Positions 7,394-43,620 of a stretch of DNA of 64,000 nucleotides are shown in pieces. The notes beneath the pieces were generated by a model. That model had not been told where the DNA came from. It saw nothing but the letters and a program-made list of their open reading frames with translations, and did not search any database. The position numbers and the translations under genes were made by a program. Source of the stretch: Haplodiscus bocki (taxonomy: Eukaryota); NCBI GenBank assembly GCA_965655095.1, contig OZ296657.1, positions 40,176,001 to 40,240,000 of the forward strand, read 5' to 3'. The first letter of the stretch is position 1, and each line of letters starts with the position of its first letter.

Positions 7394-9696
7394 TGTCGTA
7401 TTTAGACTTCAGAGTAAACTGATCATTGTAATAGTTTGGCTTCAAACAAGTCTCTAGATCCTTTATCTTACTTTCGGTGCATTGCTGGCCTCGCGAACAA
7501 AGGTTGCCTAAGTTCAATAGCAACGATTTTGTGGGCGATGAATGAAAATTAGAAAATAAAATATTCATTTATTCAGTTCACAAAGGGAAATGAAATGCGC
7601 TCAAATGAATTGGCTTGCAAATGCACATAGTTGGGCGCTTAGTCATAGTGAGAGTAGGCGAAGAAATGGGAGTTAGCGAAATAGCAGCAGTCTAATCTCA
7701 CATAGAATGATTAAAGTTACAGTAGATGAATTCTTCAACAAAATCCAGTACTCCTTGTACAAGAGTTTTATCCCTTTAAGAATATCAGAGTCCAACACCA
7801 GCCAGAAAATCTCTCAACAAAATAAACGTCCCAAATTGAAAACAGAAATAAAATTGGATTTTCAAACTATTTGGTAGATGACAGAAATCGACGTTATCAA
7901 AAAACAGCTCATTGCATCACTAAAATTTTTTTTGGAACGAGGCATCATTTTTTCCAGAGGACTTATATGAATATTCAATGAAATTGTTGAAAAGTTTCAT
8001 CAATTTTGTCCAAAATTAAAAAAAACTGAAGTACCAAAAAACTTTCAGGGTATATCTGGAACGTATTTGAAACGAATTCAGTTTATGAGGGAGAAAGTAT
8101 TTCGGAGCTTTTGTTAAGGGCGAACAGTTTGAGTTTTGTTGTTTCTAGAACTGCTTTTCCTTTTTGTGGTTCTTATGAGATTTTTGTTCCCTAAAAACTT
8201 TTTCTCACCTTTGCGCTTAATCAATTTGTCTACGCTCAGTAACTAGCATTTCGCGCCAATTAGTTTGGGTCTTGTGGTTCCATTTTGTTCATTCAGCGCT
8301 CAAGACATCAAGATATTCCTATGGGTTGACATGGAATGCTCTTTTGCTTTTCGTCTATTTTTATGAACTTTGGTCACATGCGGTCCGCAGTGTACCGAGA
8401 CAGGTCTCTTGTTGTTCCTTCATCGATCAGATATCAAGATCTCAAGATCAAGCTGTGACTTCGAGCAAGAATTTTATAAGTATTTAGGCTTTCTAGAAAT
8501 TTGGGTTTTATCTAATCAGGTGTACCATGCCAAACAGGCTTCTTGGTTGTCTCTGATTTTGTCCATTTTTCTTCAACCGAGACTCTTGTCTACTGGATTT
8601 TACGGGAGGAAAGAATTATGGTCAGGCCAAAAACCTACTGAACTCGTGGATTCACAAGGAATTCACCAAAAAGCCCAAAAACTTACATTTTTTTGAACAA
8701 ATTTTCGTCGGGAAACTAGTAATATTTTACGTCAGGATTTATGCAAAAAGTGTTGAAATTGGCCAGAAACATAAACTATGTCTGGACTAACAAAAGTTCT
8801 GACTAACGATTTTCGCTGATGAAGTCGAGTGACCTGCGCGTTATTTCCGCGACTCTCCATTTATAAATCTCACATGCGATAAATTCAAATCGGGAGTTTG
8901 CGACAAGACAGGACACGAAATTGCTTTAGGAAAATTTTGTAGAATTGAACAAAATTTGAGGTTAAGATGAAAAGCAACTTTGTCTGAGGAAAAAACTTGT
9001 GTTATCGAAGAAAAATTTCAGCCACGGCAGAAAATAAAGTTGTCTGGAAAATTTCTTGTAGGAATTAAAGAAAAATTTCGGCCAAGGCAGAAAATGAAAT
9101 TGTCTAAGAACATTTGTGAAGGCATTGAAGTTGGTCTCAAAGTAAACTGTTAAGCCGGGGAAAAGAGGAGAAAGAATTTGGTTTTTGAATAAAGTTTTCC
9201 GCAGAGACGAAGAGGGAAGAGGAGTTGGACTTAGAACAATGGTCCAAGTAGGGAGAGAAGGAAAAAAGGGAACTACACTTCTAATTTGTCCTTGCCAGTA
9301 AAACAGAGAACTGTAAGTTTGACTGAAAATAATTTGTCCAAGTGAAAACGTGGAGAAGAGGAGAGCAAGTCAGAACAGGAACGAGGAGTCCGTCCGTTAG
9401 AGGGTAAAGAAAAATTTGATCCAGATGGTTGCGCAGATTAACTCCAAATTAACAACATGCTGCCAGAGCATTCGACCAATAGGAACCGTTTCGCACTAGG
9501 CATGTTAGCTGGAACCAATCAGAAAATAGCACTAGTTAGAAATTTCGTAAACGAACTTTGTGCAATTCCATTTGTTCATTGGTACCAGGGGATTTTTTGA
9601 TCCTTTTTGTTATTCCTCGCCGGCCTCCAGCCTCACCACTTCAAAAATTTAGCTATAATAGCTAAAAATTGTTTAAGTGTTACTTGTAAAGCGACA
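7394..9696. mobile_element. ~2.3 kb LTR (family A), probably the 3' LTR of the minus-strand Gypsy element to its right
   Basis: Termini TGTCG...GCGACA. Shares blocks (GGCCTCGCGAACAAAG, CAACCGAGACT, GAGCAAGTCAGAA, terminal TTTAAG(T/C)GTTA...GCGA) with 25025-28211 and, in part, 53918-56172. Flanks GAAT/CAAA do not form a TSD, unlike the two solo copies. Confidence 0.65.
8940..9125 (+). repeat. Three degenerate ~60-bp tandem units inside LTR A
   Basis: Repeated ...AAAATTT(C/G)...TTGTCT... at about 60-nt period on consecutive sequence lines. Confidence 0.7.
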
Positions 9697-9789
9697 CAAA
9701 ACGGTACCCATGAGGAGCTACAACTCACGCCTTTTACAGGGACGTCAAAAAGATTGGGCGGCTCTATGAAAAAGGGAAGATAAAGGAAG

Positions 9790-10420
9790 TTTGAGTTTGA
9801 GACTTTTGGCACAGGAAGGTCAGAGATCTCTTTCTCAGTAAGACTCGCACCACCAACTAGGAAGACTGCAGTTTCACAAAAAAGGTCAAAGTGGGGTATG
9901 AAGTTATGGACGATGATTGCAGAAACTCCTGTTTTTGCTAAAATGATGGGTTGTTTCTAGGCTGGTTCTTGATCAGGTCAAATTGTCTGTGTCCAGATGT
10001 ACAGTGGGTCCAGTGGGCCACGAATACCATGTGGTAGGAGTTTTGGGCAGGACCATCCGAGCAAGTTGTCGCTTTAACCTGGGGGAAGGTGAGTAGAATT
10101 AAAGCAGAATTCCCAGTCGCCGATCAAATACCACAAAGGGTAAAACTTGATGTCTAAATTGTAGTCATGAGGATGACTTCTGAAATTAGGACGTGCAAAA
10201 CTCATGACCGGTTCGATGAGTGGGTCAGATGATGGCCCAGACACTTTGGCGGAGTCGAACACGAATTTGAGCGAAGCGATCTTCCGAATTACTGTATCTG
10301 AGTTGCTGGGTTTGAACTGGCAAAACTTATTGTGAAAGAAGAAACATTGAGGATGGTACCCGTAAGTAACTGATGTGTCACTCGTTATTTCGTCCGAATA
10401 ACTTTTCAAGTTTGAAGAAT
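9790..10420 (-). pseudogene. TRAF-type MATH domain remnant (stops and frameshifts)
   Basis: Manual minus-strand translation: VIRKIASLKFVFDSAK...PNFRSHPHDYNLDIKFYP / CGI*SATGNSALILLTFP / PG*SDNLLGWSCPK...NFIPHFDLF...FLVGGAS. This is colinear with the TRAF-C consensus IWKI...SPxFYTxxxGYxxxxRxYxNG...GxYDxLLxWPF...FxPxxxL...YxxDD. Confidence 0.75.
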
Positions 10421-12004
10421 CTCGTGGTTATTCACTATAACGTCGTGGGAGAGTTGTCTTGGGTGCTAGACGTAGGCTCTGGATCAGTATTTGTGGTAAA
10501 GGCTGTTCTCACTCTTGGTGGTCACGCAGCATCTTGCGGGGTGAAATGAAAAATTGATGTGCAACCAGCAGAAGAAAGTATGAGGTCCGATGATATAAGG
10601 GTAGGGTTAGGTTTAATTGTGGAACTTACTGCTAAATTTCGAAAAAAAGTGCACGTTGACGGGATTTACACCAACATAAAAAACAGGAGGTGACGGAGAA
10701 GTGCAAAATTATTCTGCAGTTGGACGGCAATCAAATGCAGTTCTTTCAGGTTCAGTTGGTCGGACTTTAAGTGTTCCTGGATTTGTCCCATTCCTGTGTG
10801 AATGGCATGTAGGCAATCCGCTTGTTGATTCTGAAGTTTTTGAGGGTTGGAGTATTGGGGTTCCAGGGAGAAGTTCGAGAAGCTGCGGGTTGAGTCAAAA
10901 ACGACTCCTTGGGGCCATAGCATCAAAGTTGGGGGTTTGAGTGTTGGAAACAGAAGATAGTTCAGTCAGCGGAGACATTCCGCAAACTATTCGAAGGAGA
11001 GAGGGATTCAAAAATGCTAAATTGTCCAATGATTTACCAGGAACTGGGAGGGGGAAATCAGTTGGGGGAAAAAGACTGGTGCAAGAGGAGTCAAGGACAT
11101 AAGCCGGATAGAGCAGTGATAGCTTTGGCGTTTATGCAAGTCGTTGACAAAGTAGTGATGTGTTTTGAAGTGTGAACTCCTGGCGGCAATTATCCCACAC
11201 GACTAAAACCCATGATTAAAAATCTTGTTTCAGACTGTAATGCAGATGTTGGCTGAACCGAGGTTATTTTATCTTCCCTTTATGAAAATTGTAAAACTCG
11301 TGGCGATGTTGACCTCCAAGAGTGGAGTGATGAAGTCGAAGTTTGAAATGACCGTCTCAAGGAAGAAAAGTTTGAATGTCAGAGACAGGAGAATTGAAGT
11401 TGGGAGGTCTGGTTAGTTTGTAGAGAAACTGTCGTCGGGCGACAACATAGGAAGTTGTAAAGCATCTAGCCCGGAAGCAATAGCTTCTACTATATTGTCG
11501 GGTGGAGCAGGGTTAGAGCTTAATTTAGGTGGAGAAGAGACAGGGGAAGGAAAAGTAACAATTGGATTGATGGGGACATACAAGCCAGAAAGTTTAACCT
11601 CTTGCAAGTCTTCGTCAGGATCGGAAGCAACTGGGAGGCAATCGTCACATCGAAGAAAGATTGATTGCACGGTGACCTAGAAAAACAATTATAACAAATT
11701 TAAACGGGCGACATTGAAGTTACGGGTGAGTTTAACTGCGTTGGACTCATTACGGGCTAGAAATCCTCTTGTTTTTCCATACCATCCTATCTGAGCTCAC
11801 TCAGCTTTACCTCATTACATATGGTTTTTTCTTTCTCTTGCGCGGCAAAGGACGACGCGCAGTGATCATACAAGGGAGCTAAAACCGACATGAAAAAAAT
11901 GTTGTATAAGGCTCTTACCAAACATGAGCGCCGCTGCGTCAGTTTTTTTGATTATTTCGGAAGGGCGTAAAACCATTACCACTACATGTATGATAAGCTT
12001 GACA

Positions 12005-13723
12005 TTAGAAAGACAGAAAAATTGATTCAACAGTGTTCCAAAACATATGCAACTGGTTCATAGGTATCCATAAGGCTCTCCTTGAAACAACCAGGCAAAA
12101 ACATTTTGTCCACAAAGAAGTCAGTTCGTGGAGCATCATTAGACGCACTGCCAGGGTTTTTTCCAAAGCATTTCCGGAAGCGGCACTGACGAGGATACTG
12201 CCCCAAAAACTGGTCGTTTCGCTTCTAGTATACATTCCTGCATCATGGGAACCGGAAAAAGAATCAACTGCTACAGGTGAGACGCCTTTAGGCCCAAACT
12301 CAGCAGGTCTGTCTTGATGCACGATGCCAGGTGTTAGTGTTTTCCACGGATCTTCTTGGTGCATGTCGAATTGGAAAAGTTCCTTTATTCGATCGGTACA
12401 TTTTTGTAAATGAGCTGCTGGGTGAGTTTGTCGGGTGATGGGGTGAACGAATTTGATCTGGCGTTCATAAAGTATAGGTAATCGATCGTCACACTGCTTC
12501 TTGGTATGAAGAGGCGCATGAACTAGTAGGCAGTGATAAAGTCAAACTAGGGTGCCATCTGTTTCAAGAAACATTGATAGGTTTCATGTTAGCATATAGC
12601 CTGAAAGATGGGGGTTCTCATAAGAAAACATCAAATTTGTAAGTATCTGGGTTTTTTCTTGCTCTTATTAATTTTTCAGAAGTTGTATTACAAAAGCCTG
12701 AAGTAGTCTTGGACTCTGAAAGAAAAATTTATCCAGTTTGGTTTCCGTATGCATCTTGTAGTCCAAAGCCTTATATATGTATATCTTCAATACTCGTTTT
12801 GTGAGACGTTTGGTTTGGTTTGGTTCGTATGCATACATTTGAGCAAAACCATTTTTCTTGAAGTGGGCTATACACTTTAAAAGTTGATTCGCACCATTTG
12901 TTCCCATGGTTCCTGCCAGATCTCAAGTCGAAGCCTACGCCAAAATTTGCTACATAGAGTGAAGCATAATTCGCCGGGTAAATATATGTTGGCTTTCCGA
13001 AGTCTTTTTGTGGGTTATTTATAACTGCGAATGCAAAATTGGTTGTTGCATAAGGTCCCTTGATTCACCATGTTGAGATCTTTGGCTCAGAAAGTTTGAC
13101 AAAACACCGTTGTCGGGGTTGTGCCATATAAAGGCAAGACGGTCCAATGAGGTCTCACAACCTTCTTGAGCTGAATCGGATAAAATTTTCCAGTGGACAT
13201 TCTAATCTTGAGAGTCGTTCTGTGCATGGAACGGAGGTGTGTATCGCGGGTAATCCCAGCTATTCCGCCAGGGTTTATCATGTCGTCGTTTATGGGACCA
13301 TCCATTGTTATAAAGGGATCTTTTGTACACTATTTAACTCCCAAAAGTTGATAAGCCAAAGAGATCATCTTTCCTTTTGTAAGAAAGCGGCCTCGTTTGA
13401 GTGTGATCACTCAGTAACTAGTAAATTCAGCAATGGTGTGTTCAATACTACTGTGTTCATTATGTCTACAATGCCATTTTCTCGCTGACGCTGTATTCGA
13501 TGTTTTGTTGCAAGCAATTTTTTTGGAAAAGCTTTGTCTGGAGCATATTTTTGGTCCGACTGATTTCAAGTCCTCGAGGTGTAATGTTGCCTTGTCGTAC
13601 CTGGTTGAGAGCATAGGGAGTGTTTTCCGTCCTTGCGCCGCAGTCATTTTGAGACAATTTAAGATTACTTGCCACCTGGTCTTCGCCTGGAACTAAAATT
13701 TGAGCAACCTCGGAACGCATCAC
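12005..13723 (-). pseudogene. Envelope-like class III fusion glycoprotein remnant (chuvirus G / herpes gB-like)
   Basis: Colinear Cys-containing fragments: QNDCGARTENTPYALNQVRQ (like the AYDC start), KWHCRHNEHSSI, LDYKMHTETKLDKFFFQ, and at ~12420-12580 SMFLETDGTLV*LYHCLLVH...QCDDRLPILYERQIKFVHPITRQT. The last resembles the C-x-x-x-L-P-V...F-x-x-P-x-T-R motif of chuvirus/gB-like env proteins. It lies downstream of integrase in the env position. Recognised by eye. Confidence 0.6.
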
Positions 13724-14099
13724 GATGATTTAAAGAAAAAACAAAATTGCCAAATTTTTTAGTGGAAGTTCAAGTTGTTGGCGTTTCCTCAGAGAAAAAA
13801 CCATTAAGGTAAAAGAAAATAGCGTCTTCACGGGATTTCCCAGTGAATTTCTCTCGGTTTTCTCAGACGCAAAGCTATCGAAAAATGCCCTGAAATCAAA
13901 CCACCTGTGCTTTGTTGGCAATAACACAAAATCGGACCTAAAAATTTATAGTAAAAGCACCACTACTGTAAAAATGACTTCGGGACTTTTATAAAGGTTA
14001 CCGAATTAGCACCAATATCCCTAAAAGGTACAAAAAATGAAACTTGAAACTGACTCACCTCTACCATTGAAATTGTTTAAAGGTAGCTCGTTTTGATTC

Positions 14100-16500
14100 T
14101 TCAGTCCTGCTGCCTGTCCGTCCGGAGCTGATGGTTGACAACGGCGGATAAGTTCGCTAACTAAATGTCTTCTAAGCGGATGAGTGTTTTACAAGTGGGG
14201 AAAATTGATCAATTTTTTCAACGCAGATAGCAGGTTCAATAACTCTTCACTCCCTGGCTTAATTGGTGTTTTCAAGGTTCCGGATCTAAGCTGTCCGAAG
14301 CTTAGAATCAGTAATATAAGGGAGTCAAGCACGTCGATCCAGTCCATTTTTATGGTTTCTAAGCTCTTTCTCGTTGCAAGGAGCTGCCAAAGACACTTGA
14401 TATTGAGTTCAATTGTCGAAAAAGTCGGCAACAGCGTGCAGGATGTTGATGTATGACACCTCATCAAGTCTCCTAGGGTTCCTGTCCATTACATCCAAAA
14501 GATCGTCCAAGCTTCGGTGTTCCCGTTTGTCCAGTGTTCTGGAGATTATCAAGGTCACGAAAAGGTTGGCAAACTCTTCTGTTTGGACTGATATGCGAAT
14601 GAGGATTATCGCGAGTAGATTCTAAACAACTTGAAGTATAAATTTTAGTGGACATGCGTCATGAATCCACAGATAATAGTTATGAAATGTTCTCCTTCGA
14701 GTGAAATTAGTGTCTACTTGAGGCGAATGTCAGCTCTCAGGGGTCTTTGAATATCACCAGTTCGGTTTAGAGTATTTTATACTGAGTTCGTTCGTGTTGT
14801 AACATAGGTCGATTGATTGGTTTGAAACACAATCACGGTTCTGTTTGGAGGAGCGTTCATAATAAAGCTTTCAATGGCAGCAACGTTTGTTGACTCTGGA
14901 GGACAGGAGAAGAGTTTTATTCAAATTTCGAGCTTCTCCGTACCATTTTCGTAACGTTTAGTTGTTAGATTGTACGTTGGGCAATTGATGATATAAAATT
15001 TGTCATACATTTCCAACAACATAGTTGTCATATGGAAATTTCTGTCCTGACTCTTGATAGCCACCGGGTAGGTAAATTTTGATGAGGGTTTTGATGAATG
15101 AGTAGTGAGAAGATCCAGGGTGCAGGTGAAGGTTGATATTTTGTCGTCGCTGGTCGACTTAGTGACAACTTTGTACTTTCTGTCGTGTTATTGAAAATCA
15201 GGCTCACATTGATCTGGTCTTGATCGTCAATGTTGACATGGGTAACTTTCATCTGATTGAAATAGTCCTTAAATCCACAAAAATTGTCACTCAGACCATA
15301 GATATCTGACGGAAGAAGGTTTCGTCACTGATAGTGGTTAGGCAACACTTGTACATCTCTTCCATTCCTGTTTCAATTTCAGTATGTTACGGAACAGTTA
15401 TTCAATCGGACGCCATTTCAATTCGTTTAATTGCTTTCATTTTTCTGACATCAAAACTGATAACAGCTGTAGTTGCTTGCCAAGTCTGGTGATTTTATGG
15501 AGTTTTTTAGCCCTCGGGCTCTTCCGTCGGCCATCGGGGACTTTTCATCTCTTGGCAGTCTTTTCACACCGTTTTGTGCCTGTCTGTGTGGTAAGATCTT
15601 GGGGTCACACAAAAAAAAGAACGACAAAAAGAGATACAAAGTGCTTAAGAGAGTAACTTGACTCGTCGGAAAAGAATGCAGTGAGCGAAGAGTCGAATGA
15701 TTTGATTGATTCTTTTTCAGATTCATAAACAAAGTAGTCGGAAATGTGTGATGGAAAACAGATAGGGAGGTAAGAAATTAGTTCGTCCAGGAGAAGGTTG
15801 GAACAAAAAAGAGAATGGTGGCAAGAACGCTCGTGAAGACTTGCTGTTGCCAGTAGGAACTTTTGGATTACATTTGTTGGTGAGATCCATTTTGAACGTC
15901 TTTGGTGACATTGATCTGACGCACACTGCAACAATGTGGGTAGCGAAACTCCAGAAACCTTAGTAGGAAGCGCCGAGAACAAATTCAAGGGACACCATTC
16001 AGTTGAGACCTACCACGTGGAATTGGGGTAGATTTTGTGACAATTGGTCATAGTGTTTTGGAAGAAAAAGCGTAAAAACTGTAGAATAGAACCGATGAGT
16101 TCCAAAATTTAGGTCATTTTTGCAGAAAATGAAGATAAAAAGATCCATAAGATGAAGTTTGAAAGTTTTTAACTGTGCCGAGTACGAGTGCAAAGCACAT
16201 ACTGTGGCTCAGGATAATCGTGCTGGAACGATTCTAATTTGTTTCGTTGGTCCGGGTTTTCCGACTGCTGTTGGTGAAAATTTGAATTGAATAACGATTG
16301 GCTAGGTGATTTTGAGAGGGGTTCCCTTGGCGATTTTGATGGTTTGAATTAAGGCTGAGGACATGCGAATCATTGGGCGTTAATGGCATTGCTGGTGAAA
16401 GAGCTTGAAAAAAATTGACTCGGGAATCACCGCTAGTGTTGCAATCGATTACTTGGAGCTGCAGTAGCAAGAGGACGTAAAGGTTCCGCAGCAAAGAAAA
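14100..16500 (-). pseudogene. Decayed extra ORF downstream of integrase, with a signal-peptide-like start; function unknown
   Basis: 16234..16494 begins (L)LRNLYVLLLLQLQVIDC (hydrophobic leader). Further minus-strand fragments (15999-16193, 15028-15252 with NVS/NNT sequons, 14189-14467) are co-oriented. Confidence 0.4.
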
Positions 16501-16849
16501 GAATCCTACAGACCAGGTTGCTCGGGGTTGTTAAACTTCTGATTTCGTTGTTCCATAATTTTCTTATAGAAATTGTCATGTCATCTATGCATGGGTATAC
16601 ATATTTTTCAAGCATTGAGTTCAAGCATGGGTATAGATTTTTTTCATGCATTGAAAAGTTTTTTTCTCTGGGGTTATATCCTATCAAATGACATCGGTTC
16701 ACATTCCTGGTAATCTCAGAGTCGTTGTCATCTTGTATCTCATGGTTTGTGCCTGTGCCACATTTAGTTGCTAAAAACGGTCCAAGTTGTCATTGCTGAA
16801 GTTTGGGATTTTTGGGAGAGATCTTCAAGGTGAATTTCATTGAGAATTT

Positions 16850-18600
16850 TCTGGCCTACGTCGAGGTGTTGTCCCAATTTAAATCAATTCGTGTAATTGT
16901 GTGACCTAGCGGCACTACATTTTTCGAATATGGCTGAGTTTTTCGGGTTGAAATCTCGTTCGCTTTCTAGAACGGATTGAGAAAGTTGAGGTCGTAGTAG
17001 GCTATCCAGTTGCTGGTTTTCCAAATTATTCTCACTATGAGAGTGGGGTCTCACGTATTTGCAAAAGTCAGAGTCTATGTTTATTGCCATGGTATTCAAG
17101 CTTTAAAAACATTACGAATCGAGGCTTTGTGCCAAAGAAGATCTCGTGGGGTATTTTTTCAGTGGTGTAACTAGCAATTTTTATGCGAGCAAAAATAAAG
17201 TTCAGTGCCAGTGAAGACCAATTGTTTCCAGTGTCTTTCGAGAAATTTCGCCTATAACGGGCAATGTGTTGGTTCTGTGTTTGAGTCTTACCATTAGTCT
17301 GACACGAGTATGCTGTTTGGGGCCCTAAGGTGATCCGTTTCCTTAGTCCAGTTGATGAAGTCGGTTTTGATGAAAACGGTGCCCCTGTCATGTACAATAC
17401 GCTCAAGAAATCCGGAAGAATGAATCCAATTCTCGACAACGGGGATTGTAACGTGATCACCAGTATAACTTACTGGGTATACCATCAAGAAGCCACAAAA
17501 TGCATCAACTACTAAAAAACAACGAAGATTCCGATCACTTGGTGGATGACGAGGTCTTATTGATCTATATGGATTTAGCACAGAATAGAGCAGTTTCGTT
17601 TTGCCGTTTTTCCCATGGAACATTAATCTGGTGTCTCGGTTTGGGTTTGTTATTTAAACAAGTAGGACAATCAGCAGTGAAACCACAGATCCAGCCAAAC
17701 ATACCAGGCCAGTGGTAGGATCGTTTTGTACTGTTGTAAGTTTTTGGAGCACCCATTTGTCCATTCATTTCATTGTAGTGTCCAAGGTTGAAACAAGCTA
17801 AAACAAAGTAATAGTGGTAGGCAAATTCATAGGTTGTCATCTTCCAGTTTGTCGGAGAGTTCATTGTAACATAACATTTCTCCTTCTTCTCCAATCAAGA
17901 GGCGATCGAATTCATGGTAAGACCTGAGAAGTCTCTTCGACTGCTGAATCCGGCGTGGTTTCCTATCGAGTAAGACTCCTTTTGGCAGCCAAGATCGCAC
18001 AGTGCCAAGAACTGGGTCTTCAATTTGTTCGGTTACGGTTGTGGAAACATCAAGGTCATTTCTTTTGGCAGCATCGTCTAGTTTCTTCATTAAAGCTTTG
18101 GTATCCAAGTGCGGGGTTTCTGTAGCTGAAAGCGTTTTTCTCATTGGGGACGCATCAGTCTTCCCTAGGACAGCATCATGGGTTGCTTTGGCTTCACGCA
18201 GTCGATAATTGTCAGCATTTAAGTTTATTTCCCATCGCATATGATCTTTTCGTTCTCGTCATCATTAATTCGAGCGGCGTCGTCCATGAGTTCGTCCCCA
18301 GTGTGTTTTCGTCTACGTCAGTGTTCAGCGAATGGATTGAACTGTATTGAACCGTAAGTAGGTTCGGAGTCTTCGTTTAAGCCTAAAGGTGGCGATGAAG
18401 GTGAACACAAACGTTGGAAGTGATTGATTGTCCTGACCATTCGGAACCAGTCGGCTGCGGATTTTATTTTTGTTACTGGAAACCCGTTTTTGTGACTATT
18501 CTTGTGAAGTTTTTGCCATCATTATTCAATCGAAGGTTTTTTTGGGCGTTTCCTTGTTGGCAATGAATCGGATAGAAGTGGATGAAAGTGTCATTAGGAT
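16850..18600 (-). pseudogene. Ty3/Gypsy pol remnant: integrase zinc-binding and DDE core
   Basis: EQIEDPVLGTVRSWL (pre-integrase); GHYNEMNGQMGAPKTY...YHWPGM...CPTCLNNK (decayed HHCC); FLVVDAFCGFLMVYP; IVHDRGTVF; NGKTQTQNQHIARY; PHEIFFG. Split by frameshifts; no RT/RNase H visible. Confidence 0.9.
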
Positions 18601-20767
18601 TGTCATCGTGTTGGATTCGGTAGATTATTGGGGAACCATGTTCATCGTAGAACTCTATGTCTCGTGGTAACTTTTTGTAATAGAGCTATTGTTTTTGGTT
18701 TTCTTCCACTGTTACATTCATACGAAGGATGTCCGGGAAAGCAAGATTTGATCCTGGGGTCCAAACTAATTTTCAAATTTCTGAAACTTCGTTATAAGCA
18801 ATTGGTGTCTGATCCTTACAAGCAATTGGTGTCTGAAGAAGCGATGTGATAGTTGTCCTATACGTCCCCACAGGTGAAGAATTGGTTTATAATCACAATC
18901 CAGTTAGATCGGTAACGGAAAATCAATGATTTGAAGTTCAATGGTTTGTGGAGCGCAGACAATTTCGCAGAGTTTTCTGTGGAGGGTAGCTATTATTCTG
19001 CTCAGCTTTGTCAAATATCTTGGAGTTGAAAAAAAATATTCGCTCTTCTTCAGGGAACTGTTTCTGATCCAAGCTTGAGTTAGTAAGTAATTTTATCCAA
19101 GACTCAACATCATTGCACTTTGGTAATACCACCCAGCGAGTTCTTTTTTTGGGCATTTTGCATATTGCTCTTCTTCAGAGAGTTTTTATTCAGAACCATT
19201 TCCGTTGCACGCTTTTCAGACATTATTTACCCGATCTAAGATAATAAAAGTTTCATCTATAGAGTTGTACTCTTCTAGGGTGAGATACTTTAGATACTAA
19301 CGATTTGTTTTATTCAAAATAATGGGTACTGGGTTGTAGTTGGTGGGTTTTTGCGATTGCGATTTTCTTTTTAAGAGATCGGAATATTCCAAGTTCACAG
19401 TCTTCTCCTCAATTCATTCTTGCCAGCCACTTTTCATACGAGGTACTTATTCCCTAACCGTTGTACCAAATTTGATATTTTCAATTTGAAAAGTTTCCAA
19501 TTTGACGAATCCCCACAGACGTAGATTGGTCATCGGCCGGACGTAAAAAAATCAAAACACTATAGATGAGTGTTACTATTTTTGTCAAATTATGTTTTTG
19601 GTGTTTTTGTCAACTTCGGTGTTTCTGAGAAATGAGATTTAGAACGAGAGAGCTTCATAAAAACATTCGGCATTCATAATTTTGAATAATGGTCGGACGT
19701 TTCGGGAAATATGGAAAGGGGTATAATGAAAATTTTGGTTTTGGTGTTTTCAATAAAATGTTCCCTTAGGAACAGCGTATTGAATATTTTAGGTGTTGAG
19801 GCTTTGTATCTGGCGATTAACGTCGTAGTGCTACCCTTTTGTGTCTTAAACAACTTTAGCTCGTGAAACATTTCGCTTAGTAAAGGGCGGTATCACGATT
19901 TCAATTGGAAAATTTAGGTCTCATTACCGGATAACTTTGAGGAACGCTTTGGTGTTTCGCTAAACTTGTCCTTCCCCAGCAGAACGTTGTAAGAAATGAA
20001 TTTACTGAAGAGTGGAAAACACGAAAAGAACTCTGGATCGATATAAAACTAGAAAAAGCATTTTCCAAAAAAAATCACTGTAATAGTCGGACAGTTTTTG
20101 TTACAAAAAATGCCGAGTAAAAACTAATCTTCTTTAAATTTTCCGGCCACCTCACTACTTAGCGTATCCTACCGAACCCTTGAAGTCAACTTAAAATACG
20201 TTCAACATTTTGAAACAATTTGTAATTCCAGGCAATCCCACAGCCAGGCTTGCCCACAACCTTGTCCGAATAATTCCATGGAAAGTATTAAAAAGCTCCT
20301 CCAAGAATACTTCGCTTGACACTTCCACCACTGAGCACTTCTCCTCGATTTCTGTACCTAAGTTGCAATATTGTATGTTTCAAGATTTTTTAAATCCCTT
20401 CGTTACTGCAGCTTGTGAAGACACATGCCTTTGCCCACATACTACCCCGAAGTAACGCTGAAAACCTTTAACCTCCTTAACTTCCTCGCCCAAGCCCCTA
20501 ATAATATTAATCCGAAAAATCTTTCAGGGGGATTATGAATTTTTTTTTATTCGCGCGATCTCCCGGCTCCATGCTCGTCCAATGCGTCCCCCTTTACCCC
20601 TAATCCATTTTCCCGCAAATAGAGGTGAAAGTACTCGAAAGTTGTTGAGGTTAATTCATAATTTTGTTGAATTTGCGCAATCTCACAGCCACAGTGATTT
20701 CTCATAGTGTCGTTCCTGTCCTCCAATGCAAGTTTTTTGCGTTTTGAACAACAAACTCAAATTCTTT

Positions 20768-22231: not shown

Positions 22232-22431
22232 NNNNNNNNNNNNNNNNNNNNNNNNNNNNNNNNNNNNNNNNNNNNNNNNNNNNNNNNNNNNNNNNNNNNN
22301 NNNNNNNNNNNNNNNNNNNNNNNNNNNNNNNNNNNNNNNNNNNNNNNNNNNNNNNNNNNNNNNNNNNNNNNNNNNNNNNNNNNNNNNNNNNNNNNNNNNN
22401 NNNNNNNNNNNNNNNNNNNNNNNNNNNNNNN
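22232..22431. other. Assembly gap (200 N)
   Basis: Run of N. Confidence 1.
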
Positions 22432-30810: not shown

Positions 30811-32584
30811 TGTCTGCCTCAGAACTATTGAGTTGTCCCGAGTGGTGAGGAAAATACCCCCCTTCGGGATAAGGATCGGTTGAGGAGCGGTCCCCATGAA
30901 GTTCTCAGCTTTCTGTGTTAACGTTTCTAGACGCTCCCTGAAATACGGAACAAGTCCGCACTTGTGGGTTAAGGAGAAACTCGTCAAGTTTCGATAGAGC
31001 ACCCAAGATACGTGACTCCGTTTTGTTAAACTCCTTCGACAGTTTCTTAGTTACCCTCCCTTCAATCTCCTCGGAGACCTGGGAGATGTAACCCTGGGTT
31101 AACTCAGGGTCAAGTACATTCCGTCCTCTACTGCCTCTACTGCTGTCGGGCGTTTCTCTTGACACTGCCGCTAATTTTCTCTTGTTTCTCAGTGTTGCCA
31201 TATTTCTTGAGGGGAAAAATCTTGTCAGTGATGAAGACTGAATTTCTACCTTGTGTTTTAATATTGATGAATTTCCTCTTGGTATGAGGGATCATGTTCC
31301 AATCGTATAAAAGTCAAAAGATGATTTTTGAAAACAACAATACTAAACAGTCACAATATTTTATAAAAGTACCAAACCGAAAGGCTACAATTTATATAAT
31401 AATACTTGTACTTTTATTTCTCCTATTTATACCTTTCCTTGACGGGAAACAAAATTGTTTACACGCCAAATCAAGGTACAAATAGGGAAAAATACTTTAA
31501 TCATATTATTTATCAAAGAAATTGGATGCCGACTCTGGCGGGAAATAAACACCCTTCCGTCCATTTCTTCCCTCACGGACCGCGTCTGTTCAATCTTTCG
31601 ACAGAAAAAAGTACGGTCCGATCCGTCTAAAATGGACATCAAAGTGGTTATTCCCGCGCCGACATCATAAATAATAACATGAACAAAAGATCAAAGTTAT
31701 TTCCAAACAGGGAATAAATACAATAATACAGTTGGAAAAATAATTTAAAGTAAGGAAAATTAATGTTTATAGTCTCAAAAGATTCATGACTACATGCTGC
31801 GTCGATTAAAACCACTGTTTGGAACAAACTAGGCGTAAATCCTAGCCCGTTCCACGTTTCTACCAGCTCAGGCCTCACTTTGGCCGGAGTGTTCCGTGGC
31901 GGCTACGTAGCCGCTTGTAGCACTGCCTTCCGCAGTGCTACTGAGGAGAATGATTCTGGTGGCTACGTAGACGTCCCGTGGCCGTCCAAAGTGAAACAGC
32001 GTAGTAGCACAGCGGATTGACTGAAATTCTAGTGACGTCACCAGATTAGTTACGACGGAACACATACGGAACAAATATTCACTTTTAAAGTCAAGCTCTG
32101 TTCTAATAGTTAAGCTATTGAAAACTTGTTAAAGCTGTCAATCTAAAAAGATTACTGCACATTCAAAAAGGTGGATTTATATAATAATTACATTAATTAT
32201 ATAAAATAGCACCTAAAATTATTATAAAATACAGTGAATATTCCTTTGTTCCGCATCTATTCCGTCCCAATAAGGATCAGTTCTCCAGAATTAAACGTAT
32301 CGGATACGTGCTTTTTACATGAAATAAATGTTATGGGACGATACGTAACTACTACGTATCGTCCACATAAATTACATGTGTGCGTACTAGGTGGATACGT
32401 ATCTACTACGTATCCTTAAGTATAATTAAATGAGTTCATGAATTAAATAAATAGGGCTTCAAGTTTAAGAGTTTACGTATAAGTTTGGAGTGTCGCTGGT
32501 GTCTCTAACTTCTGCTAGATGGACCTGGGGTGTCCTTTGTTGACGGGATCGTTTGTCCGCAGGCTTCGCAGATGTGCTGCGACA
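30811..32584 (-). mobile_element. 5' LTR of family B (includes gag start at 31201)
   Basis: Homology to the solo LTR 40395-42094 ends where minus-strand ...GACA is followed by TGGTGAC (PBS-like). Confidence 0.7.
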
Positions 32585-33580
32585 TCAACCTTAGTCATGT
32601 TAAATGATTTTTTAGAGACCTAAATGAATGCAACCGTTTCAGATTTTGAACTAGTTAAGTCTTTTTATGAACCCGTCAACACTAATTTTTTCTTCTAAAA
32701 CCTGAAGATGGGCCCAAAAAGGAAAAAATTACAGGAGCTTCACATAAACTCGAGTTTGTTCTCCAATTTTTCACTTCAACACTACCTCCAGAAACTCTCC
32801 GTTCACGCGTAGCTTTTAAAAATTCATTACCCACTGAAAATTTTCTACTTCTACTGCTGCGTAAAATTGAAGTCTCATAAAACATTTGAGTATAGAATTT
32901 CCGCAAGTAATGACATGAAAATAAAAACCCAGTCTATGCAATACGCTTGAAAAATTTGTGGATTCCTCAGTTTTTATCGCCTTCAATAGAAAATTAAATG
33001 AGGTTAGAAAAAATCTTTTTGCAAGAAATCAAATGTTTAATTTTCGGCTTCGGAAAAATTTCGTATCAACTTCTCGAAACGCGCTTTTTAAAATCTAATT
33101 AATGTTCGATTTACAGATATGTTTTTTATCAGCTTTGATTCACCGAGCACTCGTTCAAAAACTAATCATGTTTGGAAGATAGATGCAACAGTGGACTTCC
33201 AAGTTTTATAATTCCGTTTGCAAGAAAAGCTCGAAGAAGCCGCCTAACAAAAAATGTGTGGACCTCCTTCGACATTCAAAACAGTTTTATCTATGACTTT
33301 CTGATTGATTCTATTTTATCGAACCTGGAATCAAATCATGACCTACTTGAACAAGTTTTCAGTTTCCACTTTCAATATCGAGGTAAAATTCGAAAAAATC
33401 TTTGAAAGCTGAAACAGAAAAATAATTTTCTCAATTCAATTTGTATCGATTGTGAACTCAAATTCCTCCGTTGTGTGCAAAAAAGTTGTCTAGTTTCTTT
33501 TTTGAGTAATTTGCCTAGATTTTGAGGGTGAAAAGTTCCCAGTGCCAGCTTGTTTTATTCATAAAATTGAATTGCTGCAG

Positions 33581-33729
33581 GAAAATGCTGTGGATTATTT
33601 TCGTTGCCGGTGGGGTCTTCATTTTTCTGCTTCAGTCAGTTGAACTTCTTGTAGACGTGTTCCAGTATCCAACAACTCTCGATATTACAGAGGAAGAATT
33701 TGATCAAGATTTCTTTCCAGTGGTCACAA
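33581..33729 (+). CDS. DEG/ENaC (amiloride-sensitive channel family) exon: TM1 and post-M1
   Basis: TGCAG|G acceptor; KMLWIIFVAGGVFIFLLQSVELLVDVFQYPTTLDITEEEFDQDFFPVVT; donor A|GTTAGT. Splicing to 33808 creates FPVVTICN, the family FPAVTxCN signature. Confidence 0.9.
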
Positions 33730-33807
33730 GTTAGTTTCTTGTCACCAGCTATTCAGAGTAATGGCAAAATTGGAATTTGGAAGAATTTAGTGCACATTTT
33801 CTTTCAG

Positions 33808-33987
33808 TCTGTAACGCCAACAAACTGCGGATGGACCAACTCGATTCTTTGCACTCTGAGAACCAATTACGTAAACTGACGTCATTTCAATCCTACACTT
33901 CTAGATCAGTAAATTTAATCAGAAAGGAACTCGAGAGCTATCTTGAAAAAGACGAAGAATTAGCGACAGAAAATGACTTGGATGGAA
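33808..33987 (+). CDS. DEG/ENaC gene exon (ICNANKLR...)
   Basis: TTTCAG|TC acceptor after a 78-nt intron; CNANKLRMDQLDSLHSEN...ENDLDG; donor A|GTAAGA. Confidence 0.88.
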
Positions 33988-34046
33988 GTAAGAAATACCA
34001 TACACTTGGTTGAACCAAATCAACGAAAAAGTTGAAGAAAAAAGGA

Positions 34047-34530
34047 GAACAACACGGCCGGCTAGCACTGGCATAATTTTCGCCCAACTACAAATATTTT
34101 GATCAACTTTTGCAAACGGTTAAGAACAAAACTGAATTAATTTAGTTTTCAAAGAGTTTTTAAAAACATCAATTCCACCACTGATTTCTGGACATTATGC
34201 AAAAGGGTATCACGATTTTCCGTTGAAAAACTTTTGTCTCGCAGTGCCGAAAAATTTCGTAGAGGAACCCTTCTGTGTTTCAGAAAATTTCCGGTATCGA
34301 AAAATATTAGGGATAAGAGAGAGGGCGGGTATCACAATTTTCCGTCAAAATTGTTTTGTTTCACAGTACCAAATCATTTCGTAGAGGAACCCTTCTGTGT
34401 TTCAAAAAGTTTCGGGTATCGAAAACTTTATGCCTAAGTGAGAAAAATCACGATTTTCTATAGAAAATGACCATACTGAATGAATAATTTTTCTTGCATA
34501 TTACCTATGCGGCGAAAAATAACAACGTTC
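34047..34530 (+). repeat. Non-autonomous interspersed repeat with internal ~120-bp minisatellite (copy 1)
   Basis: Near-identical inverted copy at ~42888-43620. Internal units TATCAC(G/A)ATTTTCCGT...CGTAGAGGAACCCTTCTGTGTTTCA...GGTATCGAAAA occur twice; a decayed unit is at ~19885-19965. Confidence 0.9.
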
Positions 34531-40394: not shown

Positions 40395-42094
40395 TGTCGA
40401 AGCACACCTGCGAGGCATGCGGCAAGCCCCTATTAAAACGAAAGACACCCTAATGCTCAGAACAAACTCAAAACACTAATACTTTTGCTCAAACTTTAAA
40501 ATACTTCACAACTTTTGTACATATATACGGATACGTATCCAATACGTATCCATAACAAATGTACATGAATATAGTGGCATGTATTCTAAACGGAACACTT
40601 TACTAAACTGATCCACACTAAGACGGAACCGTTACGAAACAAACCAATTTTCACAGAGTAGTATTAACCTAAATGGTGCTATTTTTATGTTAATCTATTT
40701 ATTCAGTTATTATATAGAAATCCACCTTTTCGGTACAAACATGTTGATTGATTGCAATAAGTGCAGTTAACAGCGGTACTTTGATATAAATTAGTGTTAG
40801 AAAAAGCGTGATTTGCTTACAATAGAGTTGACTCTCGGAGTGAATATTTGTTCCGTACGTGTTCCCTCGTTACTTGTCTGGTGACGTCAGTAATACTATT
40901 CTAACTAGGCCGTGCTGCAGTGTCGTGGTGAATACGGAGTGACTCCGTGTTCACCCCTCATTTGAGCACAGCTTACTTAATTTCAACTAATACTACTAGT
41001 GGCTACGGAGCTGTTTCGGATACCACTAGTAGCTACTCGTCGGAACGAGGAGTAAACTAGTAGTGCTACTAGTTTCTCCTCATTTCTAAAAGAGTAAAAG
41101 ACGCAAAGATTAATTGATGACAAAATGAGCATGAAGATGATGATTAACTGTTTTTTTGTACTAAAGTCATTCATTCTGTATTTTTATTTTTCTATTTTTG
41201 TCTTTTATTTTATTTTACTAACTAAGAATTTCTTAGTATTTTCCATTTGTGGATTATACATTTTTTCAAACTGCAAGCAATATGTCAGCTGGGGAATAAA
41301 CACTGTGATGTCCATCTCTGACGGATTAGGTCCCTCCAATTTCTGTCGAAAGATGGAAAACGCGCGTCCTATGAGGGAATAAATGGATGGAAAAGTTGTT
41401 TATTTCCCGCCAGAGTCAGCATTTTGACTTTGATGTTGTAACTTATAAGTACTTTTCCCTATTTGTACCCTGACTTGGCGTGTAAACAACTATGTTTCCC
41501 GCCAGGGAAAAGGTATAAATAGGAGAAAAGAAAGTACAGATTATTAGAAATTTGTTATCATTCTGTAGTACTGACGATAATACCCAGTATTGTTACTTCC
41601 ATTATTCAAAAGACTGTAAAACCACAATTTGATTTCCCTTCAGTAAAAACAAACAATTTTTAATCGCTGACGTTCACTTTTCCCGTCGAAAATGGCAACT
41701 CTGAGAAACAAGAAGAAATTGGCAGCATTAAACAAGGAAAAGTGTGAGGAACTTCGTAGAAGCAATGTGACACAAAACTCGATTGTTCCCAGATCACAAG
41801 AAGACTACATAACTCAAGTATCTGAGGAAATTGAGGGAAGAGTCACAAAGAAGTTGTCTCAGGAGTTTAGTAGAACAGAAAACAGCATATTAAGCGCATT
41901 ATCACGTCTTGAAGACTTTCTCATGAACCCACTAATTCAGGGCCAGTCCGGAACCGCTCCGGAGACGTCACCGAACGCATATGGCACAAACCAGGGAACG
42001 AATGAGGACAACTCCCAGAGTGATCCTCATCCTGAAGCAGGTGTTTTCCAGAGCCAGACGACACGAAACTCTGGCCCACAAGATAATCACGACA
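40395..42094 (+). mobile_element. Solo LTR, family B (1.7 kb), containing the first ~134 codons of gag
   Basis: Termini TGTCG...CGACA; flanks ATTTC/ACTTC (5-bp TSD, one mismatch). Colinear with the reverse complement of 30811-32584. ORF 41692.. MATLRNKKKLAA...ISQVSEEIEGRVTKKLS-like loses gag homology right at 42094. Confidence 0.82.
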
Positions 42095-42887
42095 ACTTCA
42101 GTGGGGTTGCAGTGGTATTTCTGGGAGCTTTTTCCAAGAAGTAAAGCCACAAAAAACCGGAAATTGTTTCAATTTTGATGTCTTCACTAATTTACATCAA
42201 TTCAGTTAGGTTTTGGTCAATTTTCACTATGCCTGAAAAAAATAATACTCCATTCTAAATTTTGCAAGATGCCGGAAGTGATCAATTATTTGTTTTTTGA
42301 TTGTTTTCAAAACTTTCAGAATCCTAACCTCCAAACTGTTACTTTACCGCCTTTTGCGCGATAGTAATAACTACGTTGGACTGGACGTTTTCTGTGCTAA
42401 TTTGGTTGTGTGTTTTTTTAAATAATTTCAAAAGAAATGGCTAAAACTGTTTTGTTTTCAGCCCTGGTACTGTCTTAGCAACCGTACATCATCTCCTACC
42501 GGTTTTTAATTGAGTCAAATGTTTCTCATAATCAACGGTCTGGTCTGCATTTTGATTTTTGTAGGATATAACTGGTGAACAGACAGTTTTGAATGGGTGC
42601 TTAAATTGAAAATATCAGAAAGATTTCGGCTCTTACCTGAAATTAGCCGTCTTTGAAACGGTGTTTAGTTATTTGTAGGCGTTCAATCGATGCAAGTTCT
42701 ACTTGGGCAAAATCAAATGCAGTAGACCAAGATTTTTGCTGGGTTTTCACTAGTTTGCTGTAAGTTTTGTTACTGAAAGTTTTCGAGGAAAAAAGAAAAA
42801 TAGAAAGTGTTCTTTTTGGAAATTTCTTTCAATTTTGTTGTCCTCGCAAGTCCAAATTACCTCAAATCGTTTCCCAATCCCCCATTA

Positions 42888-43620
42888 ATATTTTTGCCGC
42901 ATATGTAATATGCAAGAAAAATGATTCATTCAGTAGGGTCGTTTTTTTCAGACCAAATTTGCCAACTCTGTTTATTCAAAAATAAGTAACAGCAGTAGGG
43001 TTAGGACAACATGGTTCTGAAGCGGTAGGTCCGGGTTCAAGTCTCCGTCAGGCCAAATATTTATATGATTTCACTGACATTTGTCAGAAATTCCAATGGT
43101 TCCCATGGCACAGTGGGTAGGACAACAGGGTTTTGAAGCGGTAGGTACGGGTCTGAATCCCAGCCTTTACCTAAATTTTTGAAGTATTACGATGCAAAAT
43201 TGTGATACCGCCCCCGCTCTTATGCATGACAATTTTCGATACCAGAATTTTTCTGAAACCAGGAAGGGTTCCCCTACGAAATTTTTTGGGACTGTGAGAC
43301 AAAACAATTTCGACGGAAAATCGTGATACTCGCCCCCTCTCTTATCCCTAATATTTTTCGATACCGGAAATTTTCTGAAACACAGAAGTGTTCCTCTACG
43401 AAATTTTTCGGCACTCCGAAACAAAAGTTTTTCAACGGAAAATCGTGATACCCTTTTGCATAATGTCCAGAAATCAGTGGTGGAATTGATGTTTTTAAAA
43501 ACTCTTTGAAAACTAAATTAATTCAAAACAGTAGTTTTGTTCTTAACCGTTTGCAAAAATTGATCAAAATATTTGTAGTTGGGCAAAAAATATGCTAGTG
43601 CTAGCCGGCCGTCTTGTTTT
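42888..43620 (-). repeat. Copy 2 (inverted) of the 34047-34530 repeat, with extra tRNA-derived units
   Basis: Reverse-complement match, also visible as near-identical spurious ORFs 34234..34437 and 43167..43424. Confidence 0.9.
42988..43165 (+). pseudogene. Two tandem tRNA(Gln)-like / SINE-head-like units (~116-bp period)
   Basis: Unit 2 GGTTCCCATGGCACAGTGGGTAGGACA...TTTTGAA has a pol III A box and a TTG anticodon-like loop. Unit 1 has TTCTGAA and B box GGTTCAAGTC. The acceptor stems do not close. Confidence 0.55.

Follow-up and report, generated by a model that had tools for sequence, protein, structure and literature searches.

A decayed, 5'-truncated copy of a large Ty3/gypsy retrotransposon family occupies positions 19063-7394 (minus strand) of the 64,000-nucleotide stretch of Haplodiscus bocki DNA analysed here (contig OZ296657.1; hereafter the window). 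Full copies of this family elsewhere in the genome are 19-20 kb long, and its identity and architecture are virtually certain. We consider it likely that the window holds an old remnant of a gypsy lineage whose env serves fusion and whose TRAF and TARG1-like domains would dampen host defence; in this reading the LTRs, the 4-bp target duplications, the tRNA-Met primer-binding site (PBS), the Ty3 gag-pol order, the fixed gene order and the purifying selection are observed directly. Env-bearing gypsy elements are usually described with three genes, and the family described here has 12-14 under selection. The accessory cargo would likely aid spread between cells and blunt host defences, and it points to TRAF signalling and ADP-ribosylation as host pathways restricting retroelements in an invertebrate.

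The window copy is colinear with two-LTR copies elsewhere from 19062 to 7445, at 62-69% nucleotide identity and about 80% in a short LTR patch (Table 1). Comparison of natural pol with the window by tblastn matched residues 905-1847, starting inside RNase H at 19063, and blastn of the window against full copies stops at 19062. The copy, cut at 19063, lacks the 5' LTR, PBS, ORF0, gag, protease, macrodomain and RT. An earlier interpretation of this DNA from its letters alone (the sequence-only reading) had described an element lacking RT and RNase H; RT is indeed missing, but RNase H is partly present, from pol residue 905. The integrase that it had recognised on the minus strand was confirmed by Pfam (H2C2, PF17921, E 1.6e-9; rve, E 0.002). 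Its env-like glycoprotein (PF24664, E 2.7e-7 on one fragment; tblastn E 6e-134 against an open natural env), its Pro/Ser-rich segment, its coiled coil with MATH domain and its 2.3 kb LTR are confirmed as well; this is the sole LTR of the copy, and its identity to the two LTRs of full copies is patchy (62-81%). The proposed gag-like segment found no counterpart, neither family gag nor ORF0 having a match in the window, and the proposed PBS-like site near 19470 is unlike the family PBS; both sites lie within two unrelated repeats. The second secreted ORF is most likely the frameshifted N-terminal part of env (13786-13520) taken as a separate gene; by hydropathy, 0/8 small ORFs have a strong N-terminal hydrophobic stretch or membrane helix, and env alone among the ORFs tested has both. 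The ORFs in the interval from pol to env (A, s1, s2, s3, B and C) had been overlooked. An internal deletion of about 1 kb removed the antisense ORF, which has zero matches within the window, and a doubtful 52-codon frame (s0).

Table 1. Remnants of the retrotransposon copy and its flank in the window
Feature	Position	Strand	Remarks
Two unrelated repeats, outside the element	19055..20195	.	19055-19396 and 19397-20195; no long ORF
pol 3' part, broken	16163..19063	-	RNase H C-terminal part, linker, integrase (H2C2, core, GPF/SH3-like tail)
ORF A remnant (140 aa in young copies; without known family)	15653..16051	-	tblastn 42% over 138 aa, E 4e-23, 1 stop
Junction of ~1 kb internal deletion	15450..15464	-	copy positions 13118 and 14127 adjoin in the alignment
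Small ORF s1 remnant (73 aa)	15274..15443	-	tblastn E 1.3e-8
Small ORF s2 remnant (73 aa)	15035..15252	-	tblastn E 2.7e-8
Small ORF s3 remnant (73 aa; s2 paralog)	14819..15031	-	tblastn 47%, E 3e-16
ORF B remnant (127 aa)	14415..14773	-	tblastn E 2e-32
ORF C remnant (114 aa)	14099..14416	-	tblastn 50%, E 7e-27
Predicted three-codon micro-exon (Met-Val-Glu) and splice donor	14053..14067	-	motif kept among copies
env remnant (720-735 aa in open copies)	11703..13786	-	frameshifted, many stops in the window
Predicted splice acceptor, directly behind env stop	11677..11685	-	kept among copies
ORF D remnant (~206 codons; no ATG near start)	11105..11676	-	tblastn E 1e-34
RING-less TRAF-like gene remnant (405-465 aa in open copies)	9771..11124	-	tblastn E 3e-55
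3' LTR (~2.3 kb; start +/- ~30 bases)	7394..9700	-	ends CGACA like family LTRs

In full copies the order is LTR, tRNA-Met PBS, ORF0, gag, pol, A, antisense ORF, two or three 73-aa ORFs, B, C, env, D, RING-less TRAF and LTR. Exact LTR-PBS junctions number at least 1,956 genome-wide, with 0 occurrences of the reversed pattern; were all of them full length at ~19 kb, the family would make up an estimated 2.5% or so of the genome. Two LTR-like repeats, 91-99.9% alike, were found at 16 loci, the LTR termini are TA..CA, 4-bp target duplications were read at 7 copies with both flanks clear, and a purine-rich tract precedes the 3' LTR. The PBS directly follows the 5' LTR in all three subfamilies and is extended in two copies, where it reaches the Met (CAT) anticodon; three PBS-matching loci considered as tRNA genes, none of which was called by ARAGORN, proved to be extended PBS copies. 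The family was recently copied and has very young members. The sequence-only reading called the element dead, which holds for the decayed window copy but not for the family, in which the LTRs of two-LTR copies are up to 99.9% identical.

Gag, of 479 aa, is separate from pol (~1,850 aa), behind which env lies. Retrotrans_gag, Asp_protease_2, RVT_1, RT_RNaseH, H2C2 and SH3_Tf2-1 were identified by Pfam; the CCHC knuckle of Gag and the pol order PR-RT-RH-IN with a GPY/F-type tail assign the family to Ty3/gypsy. In the PDB, the RT ranks first with Ty3 (E 3.6e-35), then with foamy virus (7.8e-23) and the next retroviral entries (7e-15), which is a ranking by similarity and not a tree. In full copies a TARG1-like macrodomain (E 4e-27 to human TARG1) is located between protease and RT, RNase H and integrase following. 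The Lys and Asp residues aligned to the TARG1 catalytic pair, which we take to be K84/D125, are kept in 14/14 pattern-matched copies, and pN/pS of shared variants is 0.04 for the macrodomain and 0.01 for RT. The domain belongs to the same sequence family as TARG1/OARD1 (C6orf130) and here forms part of a retrotransposon Pol polyprotein; a literature search, with most subscription papers and Repbase outside its scope, gave no earlier account of TARG1 within the pol of gypsy elements. Gag-Pol would come from a -1 frameshift, and the macrodomain, lying in the protease-RT interval of Pol, would be carried along with the particle and remove ADP-ribose from nucleic acid or from the element's proteins.

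The env protein has an N-terminal hydrophobic stretch, 17 Cys residues and a C-terminal membrane helix, all of which are kept in subfamilies about 57% alike. PF24664 was matched in 11/11 env members (best E 5.6e-39) and, by this profile, env is of the Monjiviricetes/gB type (class III). Its neighbours in the Atlas, at 0.83-0.87, comprise clusters of Monjiviricetes, gp64, rhabdovirus G and gB; these values are below 0.9 and provide a lead only. Sequence and profile searches of env against the PDB gave no match, and its AlphaFold2 model from an 11-row alignment (pLDDT 28.5) is unusable for fold comparison. A search of viral contigs gave no env match. We hypothesize that env probably works as a fusogen, likely letting particles fuse with other cells. 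The same element could instead move only inside cells, with env kept for a non-infectious role and TRAF acting as a structural adaptor, for instance of the env tail or Gag to membranes. In favour of such a mode of life, a very high copy number is typical of intracellular spreaders, and TRAF-C domains are general peptide-binding scaffolds; nevertheless, env is under purifying selection (pN/pS of shared variants 0.18), preserves its features across subfamilies and is full-length and open in 12/28 non-window copies, so that we regard a purely intracellular element as unlikely.

The TRAF-like gene encodes two coiled coils and a MATH/TRAF-C domain (PF21355, E 3e-17), and 28/28 PDB matches of its product are TRAFs (best E 3.5e-13). 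Pfam identified neither RING nor zf-TRAF in this ORF, unlike TRAF2-6 with their N-terminal RING and zinc fingers; TRAF1, which is RING-less, is similar in build. The pN/pS value is 0.45 for the N-terminal part and 0.15 for the coiled coil and MATH region. Two host TRAF-like genes share a GT-AG intron, and the element TRAF reads through that site; the lack of the intron of its host paralogs indicates capture through mRNA. Transfer from host to element seems the simpler reading, the host genes having one intron in the part examined. In a tree made by a quick method with outgroups on a long branch, the TRAFs of the element group as a single clade (SH-aLRT 99), which is nested in a family that includes the host genes (100). 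The sole host zf-TRAF match (C8:58.45 Mb) has no clear linked MATH exon. A homolog search with the TRAF region was taken up by the family's own members.

A trimer model of the TRAF-like protein scored 0.62 against 0.00 for the best control (at least 94% of contacts agreeing between runs, pLDDT at least 80) and passes the mark, which 21/30 proteins solved as pairs and 0/23 solved as single chains reached; this pass may come from TRAF trimer structures that the predictor had memorised. The RING-less protein would form trimers, fill TRAF-binding sites without a ubiquitin ligase and serve as a decoy in TNF-receptor/Toll-type signalling. It is an even question whether TRAF and macrodomain would act against host defence.

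A MATH_TRAF_C domain also occurs in planarian Burro/GYPSM1, which is reported to be a giant gypsy element with thousands of copies and an env resembling mononegavirus fusion glycoproteins (PMC6431247); Burro was the only captured TRAF in retrotransposons found by our literature search (most subscription papers and Repbase outside its scope). According to Arkhipova and Yushenova (2019, PMC6431247), its accessory ORFs may interfere with ubiquitin or apoptosis pathways. The family described here could be a rearranged member of the Burro lineage, with TRAF and env inherited from a common giant ancestor, since the two share giant gypsy size, MATH_TRAF_C, a mononegavirus-like env and accessory ORFs and MATH is reported as a separate ORF in one Burro species (PMC6431247). 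However, Burro is described there as a polyprotein of ~4,900-5,100 aa with env in frame between gag and pol and with BIR, ankyrin, BCL2 and dUTPase (PMC6431247), whereas here the genes are separate, env and TRAF lie behind pol, pol contains the TARG1 macrodomain, and BIR, ankyrin and BCL2 had no Pfam match. Furthermore, the element TRAF nests with intron-bearing genes of this genome and traces to this host's own RING-less family. Comparison of the RT region with 3,227-5,000-aa proteins gave no match at E 1e-10, which is weak evidence on this relationship. We consider descent from the Burro lineage improbable; the TRAF capture appears to be independent and would be a case of convergence.

Every accessory ORF except s0 is under purifying selection (pN/pS 0.13-0.45), in agreement with the earlier suggestion of a lineage with accessory genes: several ORFs beyond gag-pol-env are constrained. 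The values are 0.13 for ORF0, 0.17 for A, 0.24 for the antisense ORF, 0.20 for s1, 0.16 for s2, 0.25 for s3, 0.14 for B, 0.22 for C and 0.33 for D; s0 (0.58) shows no clear selection. In shifted frames the selected ORFs gave 0.76-5.5, with stops, pN was lower than pS in 17/17 pairs of copies, and the non-coding control comprised 4 copies only. These ORFs also show third-position bias and no stop among the commonest codons of their columns. No Pfam family was matched by any of them. The s2 and s3 proteins are alike at about 30-34%, the signal of paralogy for ORF0, A, B and C is faint (hhalign probability 3-20%, E 0.001-0.014), and hhalign showed none for the s ORFs. ORF0 was modelled with pLDDT 86 as four strands and two helices; Foldseek against PDB and viral libraries had no match at E 0.001, and the best VIA match (Z 4.6, rmsd 3.7, 86 aligned), to PH-like domains, is below the noise level of the tool, so that the model speaks for neither a known nor a new fold. 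ORF B had no usable Atlas match. The small ORFs would be translated by stop-start coupling from a single message. That the accessory ORFs are passengers or chance frames without function for the element, as their missing Pfam families and the different sets carried by subfamilies may suggest, is largely refuted by this codon-level constraint, by the ORF0 model and by proteins that remain 38-83% identical between subfamilies with synonymous sites near saturation, and we find it hardly credible.

The gene order is complete at 22/28 loci, partial at 6 and reordered at 0. These loci were picked by env or MATH similarity, so that members without env or TRAF would be under-counted, and the LTR-selected locus C3b, which has no cargo, was left out of the count. 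Divergent subfamilies keep the order as well (6/6 loci), each with its particular set of small ORFs gained and lost: A, C, s2 or s3 can be missing, and ORF0 occurs one to three times. The sequence-only reading had linked env, TRAF and LTR to the integrase in one element, and had offered their independent insertion as what would overturn it; apart from 19063-19500, which indeed consists of unrelated repeats, chance adjacency is refuted for 19063-7394 by the many loci at which two LTRs, flanked by target duplications, enclose this same order, and has next to no probability.

ORF D has an acidic, Pro/Ser-rich N-terminal part, a basic stretch and a C-terminal block conserved in the alignment of three subfamilies, and had no PDB match better than E 0.8. 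We noticed a predicted Met-Val-Glu micro-exon with donor motif in 28/29 copies and a predicted acceptor behind the env stop in 26/29, after which the D frame begins in phase 0; the latter count comes from a per-copy scan, the alignment-column scan having been empty. An ATG at -9 was present at 24/199 donor-like sites, which include family sites and are not a clean control. The conserved donor and post-env acceptor predict a spliced gene that skips env; four contig runs of unspecified kind yielded no legible sign of splicing. We consider the splice quite likely to be real; its message would supply the start codon of D, which would be a nuclear regulator.

The gB/chuvirus-like env was earlier regarded as mainly a BEL/Pao trait, a view now out of date. 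The BEL/Pao elements, presumably those named 'Anakin', have the same glycoprotein type, and the family described here is Ty3/gypsy instead; no DUF1759 or Pao peptidase was found among the gag and pol pieces scanned, which gave gypsy-type families. Such BEL/Pao elements of mosquitoes are reported to carry a Monjiviricetes/chuvirus-type glycoprotein (PMC7642597, PMC10084718), and gB-type env occurs across metazoan Ty3/gypsy elements (Chary and Hayashi, PMC13524379). With gB-type errantiviruses (Chary and Hayashi) the family shares the LTR-gag-pol-env order, Ty3/gypsy pol, tRNA PBS, many young copies and a separate ORF for a class III-type env that has a membrane helix and a hydrophobic N-terminal stretch; it differs by 8-11 further selected ORFs, one of them antisense, and by its 19-20 kb. 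The words TRAF, MATH, macro and accessory do not appear in the main text of PMC13524379. Bdelloid rotifer LTR elements with ORF3 have likewise acquired additional ORFs by capture, together with a further enzyme located between protease and RT (Rodriguez et al., 2017, PMC5408684), but their additional ORF is a single one (GDSL, DEDDy or F-type env), accompanied by dUTPase, and that text mentions neither TRAF nor macrodomain (PMC5408684). Troyka (PMC12440569), as another candidate, has a 3-bp duplication and CG..CG termini, against 4 bp and TA..CA here, and was rejected. A search outside the genome gave one weak and uninformative locus for P0296, and literature on acoels contained no description of the family. 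A gB-type env in gypsy and MATH/TRAF with a mononegavirus-like env in planarian Burro are already known; what is new is the architecture of separate genes, reminiscent of complex retroviruses and including a macrodomain, an antisense gene and an array of small ORFs.

Complex vertebrate retroviruses encode accessory proteins such as tax/rex/HBZ in HTLV, tas/bet in foamy virus and orfA-C in walleye dermal sarcoma virus. Their layout is similar to that described here in a small ORF before gag, ORFs after env, the predicted env-skipping splice, an antisense gene and captured host regulators, whereas RT is here Ty3-like and env is class III-type, not class I; no sequence homology to complex-retrovirus accessory proteins was found. 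An invertebrate Ty3/gypsy lineage may, as a tentative proposal, have turned independently into a complex retrovirus, being enveloped and still infectious, with a spliced regulator, an antisense gene, a self-expanded set of small accessory proteins without a known fold, and two captured counter-defence modules, namely the TRAF as a decoy and the Pol macrodomain as an anti-PARP factor. If true, this would be direct evidence for TRAF-based and ADP-ribosylation-based defence against retroelements in the host.

We identified a family of Ty3/gypsy elements of 19-20 kb that bear an env and resemble a complex retrovirus in gene number and layout, full copies reading LTR, PBS, ORF0, gag, pol, A, an antisense ORF, two or three 73-aa ORFs (s1, s2 and s3), B, C, env, D, a TRAF-like gene and LTR. 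Element anatomy and young copies show that they copy as a normal Ty3/gypsy element. The sequence-only reading had joined integrase, env, TRAF and LTR in one element, and this linkage held in other copies: among 28 loci (29 scanned, one LTR-only locus left out), integrase, A, antisense ORF, s ORFs, B, C, env, D and TRAF follow in order at 22, the remaining six being partial and none reordered. The order is also kept at six loci from two more divergent subfamilies (env 54-84% and TRAF-C 50% identical), which carry between one and three ORF0 copies and lack C, s3 and at times A. This constancy, at 22/28 loci and at the six divergent ones, rules out env, TRAF and LTR as independent insertions.

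The window, on contig C10 (40176001-40240000) of the 1.5-Gb source genome, holds a real, ordinary-looking fossil of this unusual family. Its fragments matched, in Pfam, the integrase H2C2 domain (E 1.6e-9) and Monjiviricetes_fusion (E 2.7e-7), which confirms the integrase and env-like fusogen of the sequence-only reading. With nucleotides 12000-13400 as query, 40 of 1,601 candidates were scored, the top non-window loci among them being about 70% identical; six such loci were fetched, and half of them, three, proved to be 19-20 kb elements with two LTRs, with which the window is colinear from 19062 to 7445. With natural ORFs as tblastn queries, the pol match starts at residue 905 and is followed by A, s1, s2, s3, B, C, env, D and TRAF, most pieces being broken by stops or frameshifts. 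The macrodomain part of pol is absent, and the antisense ORF was lost in a deletion of about 1 kb. Tblastn and alignment with family queries found no gag, ORF0 or 5' LTR in the window; the gag-like remnant described earlier was not recovered, and two other repeats, outside the element, lie past 19063. Its closest sampled relatives, from the subfamily with three s ORFs, are about 70% identical, so that the window copy is either a long-standing insertion or a side branch that has died out.

A MATH-region search, in which 150 of 4,117 candidates were scored, returned many open frames of 470-505 codons, and the exact junction of LTR end and PBS occurs 1,956 times in the genome (reversed pattern, 0). 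Two LTR-like repeats, 91-99.9% identical, were found at 16 fetched loci, picked by similarity and not randomly. LTR termini are TA..CA, with 4-bp target duplications read in the seven copies having clear flanks on both sides, and the PBS is identical in three subfamilies. A longer tRNA-like pattern matched nine places in the genome; the three examined are PBS sites prolonged into tRNA up to the CAT anticodon, with CCA, and two of them adjoin an LTR end of the present family. These extended copies identify the primer as tRNA-Met. The proviruses concerned (loci L083:1463-1523, L084 and L085) contain about 50 bases of the tRNA and all end at one point past the anticodon, possibly a reverse transcriptase stop at a modified base; L085 has a different LTR end and the same primer.

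Pfam domains follow the Ty3 order (gag, protease, macro, RT, RNase H, integrase), and Ty3 is the closest PDB match of the RT. The gag and pol frames share a conserved overlap, G-TTA-AAC or a near variant, in at least 14 copies; it resembles a known slippery site, and we infer that Gag-Pol is made by -1 frameshift. The segment lying between the protease and RT domains matches human TARG1/OARD1 (E 4e-27); the Lys and Asp aligned to the TARG1 catalytic pair are kept in 14/14 pattern-matched copies, and macrodomain pN/pS is 0.04.

For the accessory ORFs, pN/pS was computed in 11-27 copies from variants found in at least two copies, classed against the commonest codon of each column (LTR control, four copies only). 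All except s0, a doubtful 52-codon frame (0.58), gave 0.13-0.45, showed a bias to third positions and had no columns with a stop; when the same ORFs were read in shifted frames, the ratio was 0.76-5.5 and stops occurred. pN was below pS in 17/17 copy pairs, synonymous sites often being near saturation. The small ORFs have no Pfam match and, by hydropathy, neither a membrane helix nor a strong stretch of signal-peptide type. Paralogs s1, s2 and s3 have stops (TAG, TAA or TGA) directly abutting the following ATG, an arrangement that suggests coupled translation. ORF0, A, B and C have a common Cys-x-Trp plus Thr-x-x-x-Trp pattern, and profile comparison weakly supports their kinship, with none for the s ORFs. 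ORF0 has a confident predicted fold, for which structure searches found no clear match. The small ORFs are selected proteins, and our best guess is that they act as accessory host-interaction factors. The antisense ORF (e.g. L026:7124-7750 and L038:9344-9901) is open, yet only 30-60% identical where the copies' other ORFs are 80-97% alike, as might result from exchange of modules or from an arms race.

Outside the window, env is open and full-length in 12/28 copies. All 11 aligned members matched PF24664 (best E 5.6e-39), and most Atlas neighbours are clusters of class III fusogens, with scores below 0.9; env is assigned to class III by profile only. Its N-terminus bears a hydrophobic stretch, and it has 17 cysteines and, near residue 620, a membrane helix. 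No ATG lies close to the start of D, whose frame opens in phase 0 immediately behind a T-rich TAG just past the env stop in 26/29 copies (23 by script, three read). ATG-GTN-GAR lies directly 5' of a GT donor, some 200-330 bases upstream of the env start, in 28/29 copies (22 in a first per-copy scan, three by script and three by eye in a second), with synonymous changes between subfamilies. Its acidic start, basic stretch and conserved C-terminal block suggest that D, from a predicted spliced gene, may be a nuclear regulator. A TATA-like motif within the predicted intron is possibly an internal env promoter.

Features of the window, with predicted splice sites
Feature	Position	Strand	Remark
Predicted splice donor with micro-exon	14067-14053	-	kept in window
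Predicted splice acceptor	11685-11677	-	kept in window
TATA-like motif	~13970-13940	-	~170 bases before env start; conserved flanks; all subfamilies; read by eye
Deletion junction	15464/15450		
Assembly gap	22232-22431		200 bases; 2.7 kb upstream of truncation; element untouched
LTR-like family copies	28211-25085 and 56172-53918	-	75-82% to young LTRs, 86% mutually
Open frame, 1,058 codons	36055-39228	+	endonuclease and RT domains; young LINE-type element
Inverted repeats flanking this frame	about 31400-34500 and 40800-43600		
Other LTR-element remnants	30904-28872 and 2291-2	-	DUF1759 gag (E 1e-9) and protease-bearing BEL/Pao-like piece

All 28 PDB matches of the element TRAF are TRAFs (best E 3.5e-13), and no RING or zinc finger was found in it. 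Relatives at 35-37% lie at C5:9.06 Mb and C5:50.41 Mb with no gag, pol or env within 20 kb; both these host loci are interrupted near the MATH end by a GT-AG intron, at the same codon in each, a junction over which the database relative P0286 reads and where the element TRAF is continuous. An N-terminal helical motif is also common to element TRAF and relatives, and in a quick 37-row tree element TRAFs form one clade (99) inside a family with host genes (100). The simplest reading is a single old capture of a host mRNA after splicing; the opposite course, domestication of the host genes from the element, is conceivable and would involve intron gain. A second TRAF-like group of the same host family, the database proteins P0294-P0297, has up to 104 near-identical members, is apparently without introns and was not found in the source genome; it is possibly a separate mobile capture in a different genome. 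A three-copy model of coiled coil and MATH scored 0.62 (best control 0.00; contacts agreeing at least 94%, pLDDT at least 80), the score mark being reached by 21/30 solved pairs and 0/23 single chains; since solved TRAF trimers exist, the model shows likeness only.

Functionally, env would likely let particles pass from cell to cell, the macrodomain would likely counter ADP-ribosylation and the RING-less TRAF would likely counter TRAF signalling. A gB-type env is widespread in Ty3/gypsy, hence known, according to PMC13524379, whose supplements might include a relative filed under a different host. Burro combines MATH_TRAF_C with a mononegavirus-like env (PMC6431247), so the TRAF-env pairing is known in another architecture. 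The portions available of PMC5408684, PMC4245714 and PMC11410931 mention no TRAF or TARG1 in gypsy elements, and comparison with those of PMC12440569 excludes identity with Troyka. The layout was not found described in the literature searched, Repbase and most subscription papers being outside its scope.

Between the two further LTR-like copies in the window, tblastn detected none of the family's ORFs, so that these copies are probably solo LTRs. At C8:11.51-11.53 Mb, C1:57.82-57.83 Mb and C1:162.18-162.21 Mb, of which one was checked, equal-scoring MATH matches lie 17.2-17.7 kb apart, which suggests head-to-tail arrays with common LTRs.
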